Positions 29,769 to 57,143 are shown, counted from the stretch's first letter. The stretch: DNA of 64,000 nucleotides from Escherichia coli (GCF_030013595.1 NZ_CP122771.1); one strand, 5' to 3'. Notes: generated from the letters alone by a model not told the origin. Translations and numbers: made by a program.

Positions 29769-29967
29769 TGTAAATAAAAAGCATACTTATTGGCTGGAGT
29801 GACGCCTTCGTGCTTCTGTAGTAAAAAGCGGGAAAGGCAGGTAATAGTCAGCAACAGGGAATGTGGTATTATCGCGGCGGGTGTCTGAGCCTTTCTGGTT
29901 CAGGCAAGACGCAGGTACCAGAAATGCGAAGACCCCACTCGTTAATCCATTAACTCGTGAGGCCTGC

Positions 29968-30174
29968 ATGAAGTACCTTAACACTACTGATTGTAGCCTC
30001 TTCCTTGCAGAGAGGTCAAAGTTTATGACGAAATATGCCCTTATCGGGTTGCTCGCCGTGTGCGCCACGGTGTTGTGTTTTTCACTGATATTCAGGGAAC
30101 GGTTATGTGAGCTGAATATTTACAGGGGAAATACAGTGGTGCAGGTAACTCTGGCCTACGAAGCACGGAAGTAA
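29968..30174 (+). CDS. SrnB' overlapping leader ORF (mok-like) of the srnB locus
   Basis: ATG 29968 in frame with the toxin; MKYLNTTDCSLFLAERSKF... precedes the toxin Met. Confidence 0.5.
   Translation: MKYLNTTDCSLFLAERSKFMTKYALIGLLAVCATVLCFSLIFRERLCELNIYRGNTVVQVTLAYEARK
30025..30174 (+). CDS. srnB: SrnB, Hok/Gef-family membrane toxin
   Basis: 49-aa peptide MTKYALIGLLAVCATVLCFSLIFRERLCELNIYRGNTVVQVTLAYEARK matches recalled F SrnB/Hok family. Confidence 0.8.
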   Translation: MTKYALIGLLAVCATVLCFSLIFRERLCELNIYRGNTVVQVTLAYEARK

Positions 30175-30457
30175 GCTGCCGGGCGGGGACGGAAGTCCCC
30201 GCTTTCCGGAAGTGTGAGGTATTTCAGGGGCAGACACCCGACATGCCAGAAACAGCCGGTCCCGCCCGGGGCCGGCATCCTGGTTAAGGCATTTCCTGCT
30301 TTTCAGTCATTTCATTATCAAAATCACATTAAACGGTCGTAATCAGACATGATTTGTGCGCCAACACAGATCTTCGTCACAATTCTCAAGTCGCTGATTT
30401 CAAAAAACTGTAGTATCCTCTGCGAAACGATCCCTGTTTGAGTATTGAGGAGGCGAG

Positions 30458-30706
30458 ATGTCGCAGACAGAAAATGCAGTGACTTCCTCATCAGGTACAA
30501 AGCGAGCATACAGAAAAGGTAATCCTCTGACGCTTGCAGAACGTCAGCAGGCATCCCTGGCAAGAAAACGAGCTACACATAAAGAACTCAGAGTGTTCAT
30601 TCCTGCTGCGTTAAAAGCGCAATTGCAGGTGATGTGTGAAGCTGAGGGCGTTACCCAGGCTGAGATGATTGCCGAACTGATAAAGCAGAAGAGTGCTTTT
30701 AGCTAA
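30458..30706 (+). CDS. repA2: CopB (RepA2), transcriptional repressor of repA
   Basis: 82 aa with N-terminus [24 protein letters not shown] as recalled for IncFII CopB. Confidence 0.85.
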
Positions 30707-30949
30707 CTAAAATGTAGCGACATCACATTCTTGCCTGTTTCTGGTGTGCGTGATAGATTGCTGATCGTTTAAGGAATTTTGTGGCTGGCCACGCCGTAAG
30801 GTGGCAGGGAACTGGTTCTGATGTGGATTTACAGGAGCCAGAAAAGCGAAAACCCCGATAATCTTTCTATGTTTGGCGACGAAGAAGATTACCGGGGCCA
30901 TCTAAAAACCGTATAGCCAACAATTCAGCTATGCGGGGAGTATAGTTAT

Positions 30950-31024
30950 ATGCCCGGAAAAGTTCAAGACTTCTTTCTGTGCTCACTCCTTCTGCGCATT
31001 GTAAGTGCAGGATGGTGTGACTGA
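30950..31024 (+). CDS. tap: Tap leader peptide (RepA6) translationally coupled to repA1
   Basis: 24-codon [27 protein letters not shown] whose stop overlaps the repA1 GTG start, as in R1/R100. Confidence 0.55.
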
Positions 31025-31874
31025 TCTTCAACAAACGTATTACCGCCAGGTAAAGAACCCGAATCCGGTGTTCACACCCCGTGAAGGTGCCGGAACACTG
31101 AAGTTCTGCGAAAAACTGATGGAAAAGGCGGTGGGCTTCACCTCCCGTTTTGATTTCGCTATTCATGTGGCGCATGCCCGTTCGAAGGGACTGCGTCGGC
31201 GCATGCCACCGGTGCTGCGTCGACGGGCTATTGATGCACTGCTGCAGGGGCTGTGTTTCCACTATGACCCGCTGGCCAACCGTGTCCAGTGCTCCATCAC
31301 CACGCTGGCCATTGAGTGCGGGCTGGCGACGGAGTCTGCTGCCGGAAAACTCTCTATCACCCGAGCCACCCGCGCCCTGACGTTCCTCGCAGAGCTGGGC
31401 CTGATTACCTACCAGACGGAATATGACCCGCTTATCGGGTGCTACATTCCGACCGACATCACGTTCACACCGGCACTGTTTGCCGCTCTCGATGTGTCTG
31501 AGGTGGCGGTGGCAGCTGCGCGCCGCAGTCGTGTGGAATGGGAAAACAGACAGCGCAAGAAGCAGGGACTGGATGCACTGGGTATGGATGAACTGATAGC
31601 GAAAGCCTGGCGTTTTGTGCGTGAGCGTTTCCGCAGTTACCAGACAGAGCTTAAGTCCCGGGGAATAAAGCGTGCCCGTGCGCGTCGTGATGCGGACAGG
31701 GAACGTCAGGATATTGTCACCCTGGTGAAACGGCAGCTGACGCGCGAAATCGCGGAAGGGCGCTTCACTGCTAATCGTGAGGCAGTAAAACGCGAAGTGG
31801 AGCGTCGTGTGAAGGAGCGCATGATTCTGTCACGTAACCGTAATTACAGCCGGCTGGCCACAGCTTCCCCCTGA
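31017..31874 (+). CDS. repA1: RepA1, IncFII replication initiator (GTG start)
   Basis: 285 aa starting [30 protein letters not shown]; matches recalled R100 RepA1. Confidence 0.9.
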
Positions 31875-32049
31875 AAGTGACTTCTCCTGAATAATCCGGC
31901 CCGCGCCGGAGGCATTCGCACGCCTGAAGCCTGTCAGCGAACAAAAAAGCAGCACTGCATACAAAAAACAATCTCATCATCCACCTTCAGGTGCATCCGG
32001 TTCCCCCTGTTTTTGATGCAAAACACCTCCCACAGACGGGTAATTTTGC

Positions 32050-32058
32050 TTATCCACA
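32050..32058 (+). promoter_or_regulatory. DnaA box (TTATCCACA) in the probable oriR downstream of repA1
   Basis: Perfect consensus 9-mer about 175 bp after the repA1 stop, where the IncFII origin lies. Confidence 0.4.
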
Positions 32059-32786
32059 TTTAACTGCAAGGGACTTCCCCATAAGGTTACAACCGTTCAT
32101 GTCATAAAGCGCCAGCCGTCAGCGTTACAGGGTGCAATGTATCTTTTAAACACCTGTTTATATCTCCTTTAAACTACTTAATTACATTCATTTAAAAAGA
32201 AAACCTATTCACTGCCTGTCCTGTGGACAGACAGATATGCACCTCCCACCGCAAGCGGCGGGCCCCGACCAGAAACTATTTAGTTACAACACTCAAATAC
32301 AACCACCGGAAGAACCCCGGTCCCGCGCAGAACTGAAACCACAAAGCCCCTCCTCATAACTGAAAAGCGAGGCCGCCCCCGCCCAAAGGGCGGGAACAAC
32401 ATCGCTTTTAATTATGAATGTTGTAACTACATTATCATCGCTGCCAGTTCTCTGGCTGGAAGTCCTCAGTACACGCTCGTAAGCGGCCCTCACGGCCCGC
32501 TAACGCGGAGATACGCCCCGACTTCGGGTAAACCCTTGTCGGGACCACTCCGACCGCGCACAGAAGCTCTCTCATGGCTGAAAGCGGGTATGGTCTGGCA
32601 GGGCCGGGGATGGGTAAGGTGAAATCTATCAATCAGTACCGGCTTACGCCGGGCTTCGGCGGTTTTACTCCTGTATCATATGAAACAACAGAGTGCCGCC
32701 TTCCATGCCGCTGATGCGGCATATCCTGGTGACGATATCTGAATCGTTATATACTGTGTATATACGTAGTAATGACGAGGTGATAA

Positions 32787-33056
32787 ATGGCACAGGTTAA
32801 TATGAGTTTAAGAATCGACGCTGAACTGAAGGATGCTTTTATGGCCGCTGCAAAAAGCATGGACCGTAATGGCTCTCAGTTAATCCGGGATTTTATGCGC
32901 CAGACCGTTGAACGGCAGCATAATACCTGGTTCCGTGACCAGGTTGCGGCAGGACGTCAGCAACTCGAGCACGGCGATGTGCTTCCCCATGACATGGTCG
33001 AATCTTCTGCTGCTGCATGGCGGGATGAGATGAGCAGGAAGATTGCCGGTAAATGA
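32787..33056 (+). CDS. Ribbon-helix-helix antitoxin (RelB/ParD-like)
   Basis: 89 aa, MAQVNMSLRIDAELKDAFMAAAKSMDRNGSQLIRDFMRQ is a typical RHH; stop overlaps the downstream start (ATGATG). Confidence 0.7.
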   Translation: MAQVNMSLRIDAELKDAFMAAAKSMDRNGSQLIRDFMRQTVERQHNTWFRDQVAAGRQQLEHGDVLPHDMVESSAAAWRDEMSRKIAGK

Positions 33057-33217
33057 TGGAGATATTTTGGACCATGCTGGCCAGCCAGGACAGGAAGCGC
33101 ATTCGTGAGTACATTGCGGAGCAGAACCTGATGGTCGCCATTGAACTGGACGAACGGATTGGTTATTTCGGACGAACGCACCGGCTTACGCCGGTTTTAC
33201 ATCTGTACTACATGTAA
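33056..33217 (+). pseudogene. Truncated RelE/ParE-like toxin (53 codons)
   Basis: Reading frame MEIFWTMLASQDRKRIREYIAEQNLMVAIELDERIGYFGRTHRLTPVLHLYYM runs into the repeat motif accggcttacgccgg and stops; too short for a functional toxin. Confidence 0.45.
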
Positions 33218-33264
33218 CCTCATACACACATAAATGAGTAACATACTGATTAATATGGTAAATC

Positions 33265-34188
33265 ATGACGATTGAAAGCTTTTTTATTGGCACCCGCCGC
33301 TCTGATAAACGTTACGGGCCTCAGAGCAAGGATATGCAGGTTTCTGAATTCATTTCTCTGATTTCTCCCCAAAATGCCCCTCATAAGGTTGTGTTACCTG
33401 ATTTTACTGGTCTGGCAATTCAGCTTGATGCACAAATCAGGAACCAGTTTCATCAACTGAAAGAGGATGAGCACTTCCTTCGATATCGGCAGTTGTCGGA
33501 AAGGTGGTATCAGGCGGACTCTATTAGTGACAGAAACAACCGCAGTAAGCGTTTTGAGAAGATCATGGATGACTCACTTGATTTTTTGCTTTACAGCCAA
33601 GACGTCATGCCTAACATCAATCCAGATGATCTCCAATGGCATGATTACGAAAAGGCTAGCAGTAAGGGTAAAATGTACTGTGTAGCGCTTCTGTTCCATG
33701 TCATTGCACGGGCTGCATATGAACCCGAATCTGTGGGTAAAGATCCGACACTTCCAGAATATTGCCGGTGGATGAAAAATTGGATAGAGAAAACATTAGG
33801 TCATGATTTTTTAGATAGAATGATGATCTATTGTGCGCTGTTTGCCCCAGCGTATTTTCCCGCGTTACAACGTCTGAGCGGAGAGAAAGAAACGCGTGAT
33901 GTCCATGAATTCCTGGCTGAGCATGTTCGCACTTTAGCTCAAAAAAATTCTTCAGAGGTAAATTATAGAGATCAACGGCAATTCACGTTTGGCTACACCA
34001 TGTTCACGAAGCAACAATTTGAATTTCTGGGCATGATGCGCGATGTCCATTACCGGATTGATTGTATTGAACAGCTCCTTCTGGACCTTATAGAACGTAA
34101 GGTTGTGGATTTCACTGATGCATCTGTTGCAGGCACGTGGATTGAGAAGCAAATTCAGCGGCTTGAATCAAACGACGTAAAGCAGTAA
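33265..34188 (+). CDS. Hypothetical protein (307 aa), orphan
   Basis: Long ORF with ATG start immediately after the truncated toxin; no recognisable family. Confidence 0.5.
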   Translation: MTIESFFIGTRRSDKRYGPQSKDMQVSEFISLISPQNAPHKVVLPDFTGLAIQLDAQIRNQFHQLKEDEHFLRYRQLSERWYQADSISDRNNRSKRFEKIMDDSLDFLLYSQDVMPNINPDDLQWHDYEKASSKGKMYCVALLFHVIARAAYEPESVGKDPTLPEYCRWMKNWIEKTLGHDFLDRMMIYCALFAPAYFPALQRLSGEKETRDVHEFLAEHVRTLAQKNSSEVNYRDQRQFTFGYTMFTKQQFEFLGMMRDVHYRIDCIEQLLLDLIERKVVDFTDASVAGTWIEKQIQRLESNDVKQ

Positions 34189-53063: not shown

Positions 53064-53374
53064 CTTAAATGTCCCTTTACTGCGAAAATGGACATTAGTA
53101 TCGGAAACAGGAAAGGGAGGCGAAAGACGGTTTAAATGAGACGGTTACCGTGATGCGGCAACAATCACATGGATTTCCCGTGAACGGTCTGAATGAGCGG
53201 ATTATTTTCAGGGAAAGTGAGTGTGGTCAGCGTGCAGGTATATGGGCTATGATGTGCCCGGCGCTTGAGGCTTTCTGCCTCATGACGTGAAGGTGGTTTG
53301 TTGCCGTGTTGTGTGGCAGAAAGAAGATAGCCCCGTAGTAAGTTAATTTTCATTAACCACCACGAGGCATCCCT

Positions 53375-53587
53375 ATGTCTAGTCCACATCAGGATAGCCT
53401 CTTACCGCGCTTTGCGCAAGGAGAAGAAGGCCATGAAACTACCACGAAGTTCCCTTGTCTGGTGTGTGTTGATCGTGTGTCTCACACTGTTGATATTCAC
53501 TTATCTGACACGAAAATCGCTGTGCGAGATTCGTTACAGAGACGGACACAGGGAGGTGGCGGCTTTCATGGCTTACGAATCCGGTAA
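53375..53587 (+). CDS. mok: Mok (FlmC) leader ORF overlapping hok
   Basis: 70-codon ORF overlapping hok in a different frame, as in hok/sok loci. Confidence 0.5.
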
Positions 53588-53902: not shown

Positions 53903-56246
53903 GGGTCGGGTAGCAGCGGCACATTGCTGCGCCGCCGCCCCCTAAGAACGGAGCGTGCGAGTTTTCCCGCACTCCGCTCAAGCCTTTATAAGTGCTTTCG
54001 GTGAGCACCGGCTTCCCTGCTGTGTAACTGTCGGTGGCAGTTCGGATGTAACAACTCGAGATTGGTCAGTTCGTCACTGCCGCCCATAACTTTCCTGATC
54101 CGGTGATGTATATTCCATCCGGTCTGGTTGGTTATGAGTTGTCCGCACTGCGGACAGTGTTTCCCCTGCCTCTTCCAGAGTTGAACTACTGTCTTCATCT
54201 TCTTTGATTTGCCTTTCCAGATTAGATCCAGACGACGTTCAAAGTAGATTTCCATTCCGGGGGTGTATGGTGTTGCTTCGCCTTTGATTTTTATATGGCG
54301 CTTTATCGGTGTTTCCATTGCCCGGAAGAGTGTCAGAATTTTCCCTTCCGGGGTTATGGCTTTAAAGATCCAGCGCCTGCCTTCAAAGGAGAAGTATCGT
54401 CCGGCGATCCACCGCAATCCTTTCCGGGGATGCCGTCTTACACACCATCGCCATATAGCTCGCCAGATTTGGGTGTCGACATAATTAAATGTTTCTTTCG
54501 CCACGACGTGTCGGTGATAGGTAGCCCATCCCCGGATCACCGGGTTTAGCTGGCCTATCAGTTTCCATGCCGGGAGCGTCGGATTGCGTTTAATTATTTC
54601 TCTGACTTTACAGAGGAAGTTCTTCAGGTTTTTCTTCGACGGTTTAATCAGCATTTTACCGTTGTACTTCCTGACGTTCTGCCCTAAAAAGTCGAAGCCT
54701 TTATCTATATGTGTGATCGCTGTTTTTTCTTCCGACAGTTCCAGCCCTCGTTCGCGCATGAAAGCTGCAATCAGTGGTCTGACCTCATTTTCCAGCAATT
54801 CACGGGAGCTGCCTGAACAGATGAAATCATCAGCATATCTCACATAATTCACCTGGTGCTTTGCACTGTGATAACCACTTTTCCTGAACGTTTGCATCAG
54901 TTCCTTCTCCAGTCCGTCCAGAGCCATGTTGGCGAGAACAGGGGATATGATGCCTCCCTGCGGTGTCCCGCTGTTCGTATGGTTAAACACGCCTCTTTCC
55001 ATGTAACCTGCTTTCAACCATTTTTTAAGCAGTCTCCTGTCCATCGGAATATGGGAAAGCAGCCAGTCATGGCTGATGTTATCGAAACACCCTTTAATAT
55101 CGCCCTCCAGTATCCATTTGGGCGATACTTTCTGGCTCATCCGCAGAAAAATGGACTCAATGGCGTCATGCGTGCTGCGCATTGGTCTGAAACCATAGCT
55201 GTTATGGTCAGCAGTGGTCTCGGATACGGGTTCCAGAGCCAGCAGCCACAGTGCCTGCATGGCCCGGTCCCTCATTGTGGGTATGCCCAGCGGTCGCGTT
55301 TTGCCGTTTGATTTTGGGATATGTATTCGCCGTAGTGGCTGTGGCCTGTAACCACACAGATTCAGGCTGCATATTCCTTCCCATTTCTCCTTCGGTGTGT
55401 GCCATATTTTTCCGTCAATACCGGGTGTCCTTTTACCGGTATTTTCAGTTACACGCCTGACAGCCACGGCTTTGCCGGAGAATGAGCGGGTGAGGATGCG
55501 CTGTAGTTCTCTGACCTGCCGCCATTGTTGCTGTCGGGTTGCCTTTGCAATCCGTAACTGTAGCTTTCGCACCCGGGCATGGCATGCTTTCCAGTTTATG
55601 GTGTGCCAGCCTGTCGGGTGGGGTATCGTGGACACACTGATGTGTGTATTCATCTCGCTGATATCCTTTTGACTGCTTTACAGCTTTTCATGCAATTAAA
55701 GACCAGACGGAAGTCTGCCCGCTTTCGCGTCGGGGAACCTGCCCCGTATCCCGGTTATTACGGCCGGGCATTCGCTTTTTCCGTCCTCCTATGCCCGCAC
55801 CGCTAACAGTGTTCCTTGCGGTTCACCTGCCTGTGAGGCAGCGATACGGGTTTACCAGGTTCCGCTTAACATACAGAGGGTCAGGGCGGGTTCTGTCTCT
55901 TCACCGGGGGTCTCTGCGCCCATGTGCTCCCTGTGCGCGAGGTAGCAACCGGACCCCGTACCTTTTGGTTCAGGCCTGTCAGCATCTTTGGCCTGTTGCC
56001 GATAACGGTGTTTATCAACAGTTCACATGTGTTAACCCTTCTGACCAGCCTTGCTCTCCTGCCGCATGATGCTTGCAGCAAGGTAAAGCCCCTCACGGGG
56101 CTTTACCCGGGCTGACGCCCGGCTCTCGTTGTCCCGGGAGCTTCAGACCCCGCCGTTGCCGGCAACGCCTGTCCCGGTAGGCTACAGCTAATGGGATAGC
56201 TGGTTTTATCAATGTAAAACAATACGTTAAGCGACTTCCTGTCGCA
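53903..56246 (-). mobile_element. Group II intron (about 2.34 kb) inserted in a type B leading-region repeat; low-coordinate boundary uncertain by about 10 bp
   Basis: Minus-strand 5' end GTGCGAC at 56246; domain V GAGCGGAGTGCGGGAAAACTCGCACGCTCCGTTC at 53946-53979; flanks rejoin to match uninterrupted copy 1 at 42459-42510. Confidence 0.8.
53986..55653 (-). CDS. Group II intron-encoded protein (reverse transcriptase / maturase / HNH endonuclease)
   Basis: 555 aa with RT motifs (YADD), maturase X region and C-terminal HNH-like Cys/His cluster. Confidence 0.9.
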   Translation of the reverse strand: MNTHISVSTIPHPTGWHTINWKACHARVRKLQLRIAKATRQQQWRQVRELQRILTRSFSGKAVAVRRVTENTGKRTPGIDGKIWHTPKEKWEGICSLNLCGYRPQPLRRIHIPKSNGKTRPLGIPTMRDRAMQALWLLALEPVSETTADHNSYGFRPMRSTHDAIESIFLRMSQKVSPKWILEGDIKGCFDNISHDWLLSHIPMDRRLLKKWLKAGYMERGVFNHTNSGTPQGGIISPVLANMALDGLEKELMQTFRKSGYHSAKHQVNYVRYADDFICSGSSRELLENEVRPLIAAFMRERGLELSEEKTAITHIDKGFDFLGQNVRKYNGKMLIKPSKKNLKNFLCKVREIIKRNPTLPAWKLIGQLNPVIRGWATYHRHVVAKETFNYVDTQIWRAIWRWCVRRHPRKGLRWIAGRYFSFEGRRWIFKAITPEGKILTLFRAMETPIKRHIKIKGEATPYTPGMEIYFERRLDLIWKGKSKKMKTVVQLWKRQGKHCPQCGQLITNQTGWNIHHRIRKVMGGSDELTNLELLHPNCHRQLHSREAGAHRKHL

Positions 56247-56855: not shown

Positions 56856-57143
56856 ATGAGTACCCGAAATATCCACGTTAACACCGCGTCGTACACGCTT
56901 CTTGTTGCCGGGAAGAAAAAAAACACCGGGGAAGAGTGGGACGTCCTGGAATTCAGCAGCCTGACTGAGCTGAAAAAATATCGCAAAAGCCACCCGGAAA
57001 AGATGGCCTTCAGTTATAGCTACGCGCTCAGTCAGGGTGTGGATAAGCAGTTCCGCCATATCAACATTGCGGAAGCCGATCACTTCAAACAGTTCCTGCG
57101 TCAGATTAAGCGTGCCGGCCTCGATATCCGGGCGATCTGCTGA
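56856..57143 (+). CDS. Hypothetical leading-region protein (95 aa)
   Basis: RBS gagaggaga before ATG 56856; first ORF after repeat B copy 3. Confidence 0.5.
   Translation: MSTRNIHVNTASYTLLVAGKKKNTGEEWDVLEFSSLTELKKYRKSHPEKMAFSYSYALSQGVDKQFRHINIAEADHFKQFLRQIKRAGLDIRAIC

Follow-up and report, generated by a model that had tools for sequence, protein, structure and literature searches.

Judged from its sequence, a 64,000-nucleotide stretch of DNA from Escherichia coli (NZ_CP122771.1; hereafter the window, with positions counted from its first letter) almost certainly carries a complete and intact IncFII (RepFIIA, R1/R100-type) basic replicon. The region is already known and ordinary in kind, a textbook example of such a replicon with the known Tus/Ter fork trap. 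The earlier note had proposed a RepFIIA control region and origin at this place. The proposal is borne out by a match to the Rfam model of the CopA antisense RNA, with its stem-loops present, by an intact repA1 reading frame and by alignment with the basic replicon of R100 (identity of 93% for the whole region, 94% for repA1 and 98% for oriR). The presence of the individual parts, as well as their intactness, order, orientation and conservation, was observed directly. More than 5000 plasmid records align with the region at 90% identity or higher, and the annotation underlying it names a RepA regulator, Tap and IncFII RepA. The value of the assignment lies in annotation: it marks the window as an IncFII-type plasmid, places the copy-number circuit, the origin and the fork trap, and establishes that the replicon is intact.

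Replication initiator and its leader peptide

The gene for the IncFII replication initiator, repA1, occupies positions 31017–31874 of the plus strand, begins with a GTG codon and encodes a protein of 285 aa. Its frame is undisrupted, in agreement with the earlier note, which had placed repA1 in this region. The product matches the incFII_RepA profile TIGR03474 with 588 bits (cut-off 447), as well as NF010313 (622 bits) and PF02387 (E-value = 5.6e−26), and shares 97.2% of its amino acid residues with RepA1 of R100.

Immediately upstream lies tap (repA6; positions 30950–31024, plus strand), the 24-codon leader peptide that had likewise been anticipated, which matches the Pfam family PF08048 'Tap RepA1 leader peptide' with an E-value of 1.8e−14. 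The TGA stop codon of tap (31022–31024) overlaps the start of repA1 (GTG at 31017) within the sequence GTGACTGA (31017–31024). In addition, a hairpin predicted in the leader RNA at positions 30983–31020 hides both the Shine-Dalgarno sequence and the GTG start of repA1, and this is the layout required by the translational-coupling model of R1/NR1. By analogy with the R1/NR1 literature, translation of tap and repA1 would be coupled.

Copy-number control

The copB gene (repA2; positions 30458–30706, plus strand) is an 82-aa ORF for the ribbon-helix-helix repressor of the repA promoter and matches Pfam PF10723 (RepB-RCR_reg) with an E-value of 1.3e−33. The earlier note was right about its presence but not about its position: the region had been said to begin at 30707, which is the first base after the copB stop codon, so that the gene lies wholly to the left of that start. 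The counterpart of copB in the plasmid record CP122741.1 is annotated as 'replication regulatory protein RepA'. The CopB allele of the window is only 58% identical to CopB of R100 but 99–100% identical to CopB of other plasmids.

Downstream of copB we read directly from the sequence a putative repA promoter, PrepA (positions 30731–30759, plus strand), composed of a −35 hexamer TTGCCT (30731–30736), a 17-nt spacer and a −10 hexamer TAGATT (30754–30759). The same interval is presumed to contain the CopB operator. The two hexamers agree with the consensus at 8 of 12 positions, which is under the threshold of the promoter scanner. They align with conserved positions of R100, whereas the spacer and flanks diverge.

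The CopA antisense RNA, which had been expected on the minus strand at roughly 30760–30940, was found there by Rfam. The match to RF00042 (positions 30844–30932, minus strand) spans the full model (model positions 1–92) and scores 91.3 bits (gathering score 60; E-value = 4e−17). The predicted fold comprises two stem-loops (−33.9 kcal/mol, z = −4.4). In stem-loop II, the upper stem and the loop are not those of R100 but are identical to the allele found in two other loci of our collection (L005 and L008). CopT, the target of CopA, is the same stretch (30844–30932) on the plus strand, inside the repA leader. A permissive Rfam search over positions 30300–33300 returned, besides CopA itself, only two weak plus-strand echoes of the CopA hairpin.

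CopA appears to have its own sigma-70-like promoter, identified by the promoter scan on the minus strand at positions 30939–30967 (−35 TTGAAC, 17 nt, −10 TATACT; 9 of 12 consensus positions). Its position predicts a transcription start at about 30932, i.e. at the first position of the Rfam match, and the promoter region is 100% identical to that of R100. Overall, the promoter and terminator scan was no richer than shuffled sequences (three promoter-like matches against 2.3 expected and five terminator-like ones against 2.7), and from its output we used only the CopA promoter and a terminator-like hairpin on the minus strand, which is described below.

Origin of replication

The spacer between repA1 and oriR (positions 31875–32049, plus strand), corresponding to the 'CIS' region of R1, was assigned by position. 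It is 86% identical to R100, and 67% of its alignment columns are invariant among ten relatives, which makes it less conserved than oriR. In R1, this region is credited with the cis-action of RepA.

The minimal origin oriR, delimited by homology to approximately 32050–32237 (plus strand), starts at a DnaA box and is identical to R100 at 185 of 188 positions; the 188-bp extent follows the R1 literature. As the earlier note had claimed, a perfect DnaA box, TTATCCACA, is present downstream of repA1. It lies at positions 32050–32058 of the plus strand, is conserved with R100 oriR and is kept in nine of the ten close relatives. The window contains two perfect DnaA boxes where 0.52 would be expected, and at least two were seen in 9 of 100 shuffles. 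The box by itself is thus statistically unremarkable, and what counts is its conserved position. Reportedly, DnaA-dependent replication of R1 persists when the DnaA box is disrupted by point mutations. The origin also includes an AT-rich trough, with a GC content of 0.27–0.30 at about 32130–32219.

Ter sites and the predicted fork trap

Beyond oriR there is an inverted repeat, which the earlier note had described, without interpreting it, as a 10-bp repeat flanking a G/C hairpin. The repeat is real, although its left copy lies one base to the left of where it had been put: AGTTACAACA occupies positions 32282–32291 and TGTTGTAACT positions 32419–32428. It is in fact perfect over 11 bp (32281–32291 and 32419–32429), and an 18-nt version is 89% complementary. 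Based on sequence, this inverted repeat is the known IncFII pair of Tus-binding Ter sites and part of the same replicon. The Ter core motif GTTGTAACTA is found at 32281–32290 (minus strand) and 32420–32429 (plus strand), and these are its sole two copies in the 64 kb, against 0.08 expected; none of 100 shuffles contained two or more.

To define the Ter core we used position 6 plus positions 8–18 (G6, A8–T18), as in PMC8347550. The left site, equivalent to terRL (positions 32277–32299), reads TATTTGAGTGTTGTAACTAAATA on the minus strand and matches the core of TerB at 11 of 12 positions, the one mismatch being G instead of A at position 8. The right site, equivalent to terRR (positions 32411–32433, plus strand), reads ATTATGAATGTTGTAACTACATT and matches the TerB core at all 12 positions. 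Within the left site TTTAGTTACAACA is invariant in ten of ten relatives, as is GAATGTTGTAACTA within the right site in the ten close relatives, and GTTGTAACTA is common to 19 aligned, more distant loci. In the ten E. coli-type relatives, the Ter cores are invariant despite variable flanks.

The polarity of the sites was calibrated on the MG1655 chromosome, where the plus strand of TerB reads AATAAGTATGTTGTAACTAAAGT immediately upstream of tus. TerB arrests clockwise forks, and the calibration implies that forks travelling in the 5′ to 3′ direction of the GTTGTAAC strand are blocked. The left Ter site is accordingly predicted to block leftward forks and the right one rightward forks, so that the two would form a fork trap.

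The hairpin between the Ter sites

The G/C hairpin noticed earlier (CCCGCCC-aaa-GGGCGGG) was located at positions 32378–32394 and turned out to be the core of a longer palindrome. This GC-rich element of about 48 bp (approximately 32363–32410, assigned to the minus strand) has arms of 22 nt and lies directly against the right Ter site at position 1, its blocking face. A simple scanner classified it as terminator-like on the minus strand. A minus-strand promoter-like match overlapping the right Ter site was dismissed, being unconserved in other genera.

To see how widely the arrangement occurs, we scanned one genome per species for a Ter-pair pattern with 100–130 nt between the sites, which yielded 33 loci. 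Four of these (L018, L020, L025 and L028) have no such hairpin and were discounted as chance matches. About 29 of the 33 are considered genuine Ter pairs, and all of them have the hairpin, which was present in all 30 related loci; the hosts include Klebsiella, Citrobacter, Yersinia pestis, Pantoea, Erwinia, Rahnella, Buttiauxella, Kosakonia, Ewingella, Mixta and others. When read from the minus strand, the hairpin forms a near-continuous helix of 21 bp with three to four conserved U–G pairs, after which comes a conserved TTTTCAG. Of 23 distinct sequences, 22 fold more stably as the minus strand (mean −31.5 kcal/mol, versus −24.3 kcal/mol for the plus strand). Covariation was tested with an ungapped alignment of the 23 distinct hairpin sequences and 500 shuffles. 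In this alignment 94% of the hairpin cells are paired on the minus strand versus 79% on the plus strand, compared with 36–59% in slid controls. Five pairs have changed on both sides, and the observed covariation score was reached in none of the 500 shuffles. It should be noted that palindromes can also retain symmetry via templated repair.

With regard to function, one tentative candidate role for the hairpin is that of an intrinsic terminator shielding oriR and the left Ter site from leftward transcription. Another is that the template of the leading strand folds into this hairpin as single-stranded DNA, which would act at a fork stalled by Tus.

Structured block downstream and the Ter cassette

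The right Ter site is followed by a conserved and highly structured block (positions 32434–32735, no strand assigned), which is about 95% identical to R100 until homology ends near 32760; over 32471–32700, 80% of the alignment columns are invariant. Folded as single-stranded DNA, the block has z-scores of −3.2 (minus strand) and −2.2 (plus strand), and several of its hairpins show compensatory changes between genera. The consensus folds of the two strands differ in energy (−47.9 versus −38.4 kcal/mol), with G–U pairs on both strands. No known RNA family was found over either this block or the inter-Ter hairpin in the permissive Rfam search of 30300–33300. By its position, and following the order of sites described for R1 (PMC10331603), the block would correspond to the region of leading-strand start, the 'G site' of R1, which is a G4-type priming site whose single-stranded DNA hairpins primase recognizes.

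The left Ter site, the hairpin, the right Ter site and the block together make up a cassette, which in the collected loci sits approximately 400–730 bp downstream of three kinds of genes. In 13 loci it is beside a gene for IncFII RepA (58–97% amino acid identity), and the adjacent gene in Buttiauxella encodes a distant RepA_IncFII_LM protein. The two loci checked from Erwinia persicina and Rahnella sp. (L030 and L041) have the cassette next to a gene for a 355-aa protein, for which we found no match in Pfam or NCBIfam and no BLASTP similarity to RepA. Given its location next to different kinds of genes, the cassette looks like a portable module. A more far-reaching proposal would be that the hairpin is a functional, strand-specific and so far undescribed element of termination or priming, and that the cassette is a portable module joined to unrelated initiators of Enterobacterales; we put this forward tentatively and consider it, on the whole, rather unlikely.

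Alternative interpretations

A whole-window Rfam scan detected the traJ 5′ UTR/FinP, several tra antisense RNAs, two sok RNAs, a group II intron and a single CopA. These matches identify the window as an F-type conjugative plasmid. The multi-replicon state is common in IncF plasmids, and the nearest plasmid carries the MOB-suite label 'IncFIA', which might suggest that the replicon described here is a dead relic and that maintenance of the plasmid depends on a second replicon elsewhere. We regard this as very unlikely. Every part of the replicon is intact, and the label is uninformative here because 'IncFIA' is also what MOB-suite assigns to R100, the prototype of IncFII. Moreover, no second rep gene is annotated within the first 50 kb of the near-identical 66-kb plasmid CP122741.1. 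The IncFII basic replicon is probably the sole replicon of the plasmid.

Two other explanations concern the region beyond oriR. A palindrome enclosed by two short and perfect inverted repeats at a distance of about 130 bp superficially resembles a MITE or an IS remnant with terminal inverted repeats, in which case there would be no Ter pair at all. This identity was rejected as barely credible, since the repeat is exactly the Tus-binding core (with its 12/12 and 11/12 matches to TerB) and keeps a constant position relative to oriR across R100 and every relative examined, none of which shows an 'empty site'; the 64-kb window holds no additional copies, and the published ter sites of R1/R100 occupy the same position. 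The other explanation invokes a protein. The IncFII 'repA4 region' is known to contain ter sites (PMC4398462), and in R100 an ORF of 128 aa runs across both of them (L003:40033–40419). Positions 32237–32620 might then act through the RepA4 protein, the product of this R100/NR1 ORF, which is reported to be needed if the plasmid is to be stably inherited. A transposon-insertion study lists 'repA4' among the elements needed for maintenance of pEC958 (PMC4398462). However, a 1-bp deletion in the window introduces a stop after 40 codons of the repA4 ORF, and in eight of the ten close relatives the ORF is shortened to 5–87 codons, whereas both Ter cores and the hairpin have remained intact. Conservation thus tracks the DNA sites and structures rather than the reading frame, and we rejected the RepA4 protein as a highly improbable agent. 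The Ter pair is our preferred reading of the inverted repeat. A conserved cassette combined with a non-conserved repA4 frame could help to explain the destabilization of IncF plasmids by 'repA4' insertions and could be of interest to specialists in plasmid replication.

Proposed mode of replication

All functional steps, including replication itself, copy-number control and Tus binding, are proposed here by homology, applying the R1/NR1 model from the literature. Transcripts of repA1 would originate from two promoters, the constitutive promoter of copB and the repA promoter repressed by CopB. RepA1 would be translated only after ribosomes have translated the 24-codon tap leader, which is expected to open the hairpin masking the ribosome-binding site of repA1. 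CopA, an RNA of about 90 nt that is transcribed in the opposite direction from a promoter of its own, would pair with the CopT leader just upstream of tap and block translation of the latter and with it RepA1 synthesis, thereby setting the copy number.

RepA1 would then act in cis on oriR, located about 175 bp downstream, and together with DnaA bound at the TTATCCACA box would open the AT-rich end of the origin, with leading-strand synthesis presumably starting a few hundred bp further to the right. The two opposed Ter sites, which lie between oriR and the point where the leading strand starts, are expected to be bound by the host Tus protein. At the left site the leftward fork would halt almost immediately, whereas the rightward fork would circle the plasmid until it meets the right site. 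Since the leftward fork would be stopped by the left Ter site, replication would be unidirectional.

Comparison with known systems

R100 (NR1) served as the reference for comparison (NC_002134.1, basic replicon at 88253–90600), and R1 was compared through R100 and through the descriptions given in reviews. Colinearity with R100 begins upstream of copB and extends to about position 32760. The two replicons share the order and spacing of repA2/copB, CopA, tap, repA1, oriR, the two Ter sites and the structured block, and their Ter cores and DnaA boxes are identical. Identity at the nucleotide level is 99% for tap (one mismatch in 75 nt), 94% for repA1 and 98.4% for the 188 bp of oriR counted from the DnaA box. 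In contrast, it is 80% over the interval of the repA promoter and operator (30707–30843), 67% over the 27 nt that form the upper stem and loop in stem-loop II of CopA, and 63% for copB. High identity of tap, repA1 and oriR along with low identity of copB and the CopA loop is the pattern expected of IncFII alleles. The differences from R100 are a diverged CopB allele, with which the promoter/operator region of repA has diverged as well, the altered CopA loop, the repA4 ORF cut to 40 codons, a compensated C/G swap in the inter-Ter hairpin, and the downstream neighborhood, which is tir-pemIK in R100 and yacA plus a truncated yacB in the window.

Judging by sequence matches, the CopB and CopA-loop alleles are known variants, each also present in other sequenced plasmids. 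Because both differ from those of R100, it does not follow that the plasmid is incompatible with R100/R1. It could well prove compatible with IncFII plasmids of the classic type, which bears on replicon typing.

The closest known relative is plasmid unnamed1 of E. coli ETEC1745 (CP122741.1; 66 kb; pig faeces, Belgium), which is 99.9% identical to the window over positions 30300–32800. Its RepA1 is identical to that of the window at 284 of 285 residues. The flanks are also the same, with hok upstream and yacA downstream (yacB being unannotated), and it is otherwise essentially the same plasmid.

The Ter sites of the window share their conserved core with the E. coli TerB consensus, AATAAGTATGTTGTAACTAAAGT. 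However, chromosomal Ter sites of E. coli are hundreds of kb apart and opposite oriC, whereas the pair in the window is about 130 bp apart and beside a plasmid origin. In this respect the window corresponds to R1, in which two ter sites are found between oriR and the leading-strand start (PMC10331603). In R1, terRL halts the counter-clockwise fork almost at once, while the clockwise fork copies the plasmid until it reaches terRR (PMC10331603), and R1 is destabilized when ter or Tus is lacking (PMC4999828). Both the placement and the orientations of terRL and terRR agree with those deduced for the two Ter sites of the window, at which binding of Tus is predicted.

Distribution of the Ter cassette

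The cassette at 32277-32735 of the window, composed of the left Ter site, a GC-rich hairpin, the right Ter site and a structured block, has counterparts in many genera of Enterobacterales, as found among the loci of the Ter-pair pattern scan (L014-L046). The hairpin itself (32363-32410), located between both Ter sites, is kept with compensatory changes across 30 related loci, and its minus-strand fold, which makes use of U-G pairs, is clearly superior (94% versus 79% of cells paired). The genes upstream of the cassette vary: some loci have IncFII RepA and the Buttiauxella locus L024 a distant RepA_IncFII_LM protein, while in L030 and L041 (Erwinia persicina and Rahnella sp.) the cassette lies downstream of an unrelated 355-aa protein (L030:1303-2370, L041:6469-7536), for which a family search returned no match. 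The L044 copy sits on a 5.17-Mb Pantoea contig.

Six assemblies labelled as Streptomyces, Clostridiales, Lachnospiraceae, Sporosarcina, Collinsella and Chryseobacterium (L015, L016, L017, L019, L026 and L042) contain IncFII plasmid sequence of E. coli or other enterobacterial type, which is probably due to contamination or mis-binning. Two plasmids have unusual arrangements. In E. albertii pEA04.3 (L004, 1-1600), CopA and tap are positioned ~475 bp farther upstream of repA than usual and are separated from it by an additional annotated ORF. Plasmid pZ1323PEC0013-3 (L007) has the ori/Ter cassette with only an NYN-domain gene upstream, no CopA match and no annotated repA.

Genes and RNA elements in the window

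To the right of the cassette, the yacA-yacB region (32787-33217) encodes an intact yacA antitoxin gene (32787-33056), overlapped by the gene for the ParE-like toxin YacB. The latter is reduced to a remnant of ~37 codons, because similarity to intact yacAB loci stops at ~33165 and gives way to unrelated DNA with a 307-aa ORF (33265-34188); yacA is thus an orphaned antitoxin. Elsewhere in the window, sok antisense RNA matches are present at 29879-30174 and 53259-53435, the first overlapping the start of hok (30025-30174, assigned by correspondence with the CP122741.1 annotation), directly upstream of copB. Group II intron RNA domains (Rfam RF02012 and RF00029) occupy 53905-56203 on the minus strand, and a second perfect DnaA box (TTATCCACA; 57038-57046, minus strand) lies ~2.7 kb upstream of traJ/FinP.

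Comparison with R100

The 'repA4' ORF (32237-32359) is shortened by a 1-bp deletion to 40 codons, compared to 128 aa in R100, and is broken in eight of ten close relatives; it does not constitute a conserved coding sequence. The PLSDB/MOB-suite replicon label 'IncFIA' of the nearest relative, CP122741.1 (L001), should not be taken to denote a RepFIA replicon, because R100 (L002/L003), the IncFII prototype, is labelled likewise.
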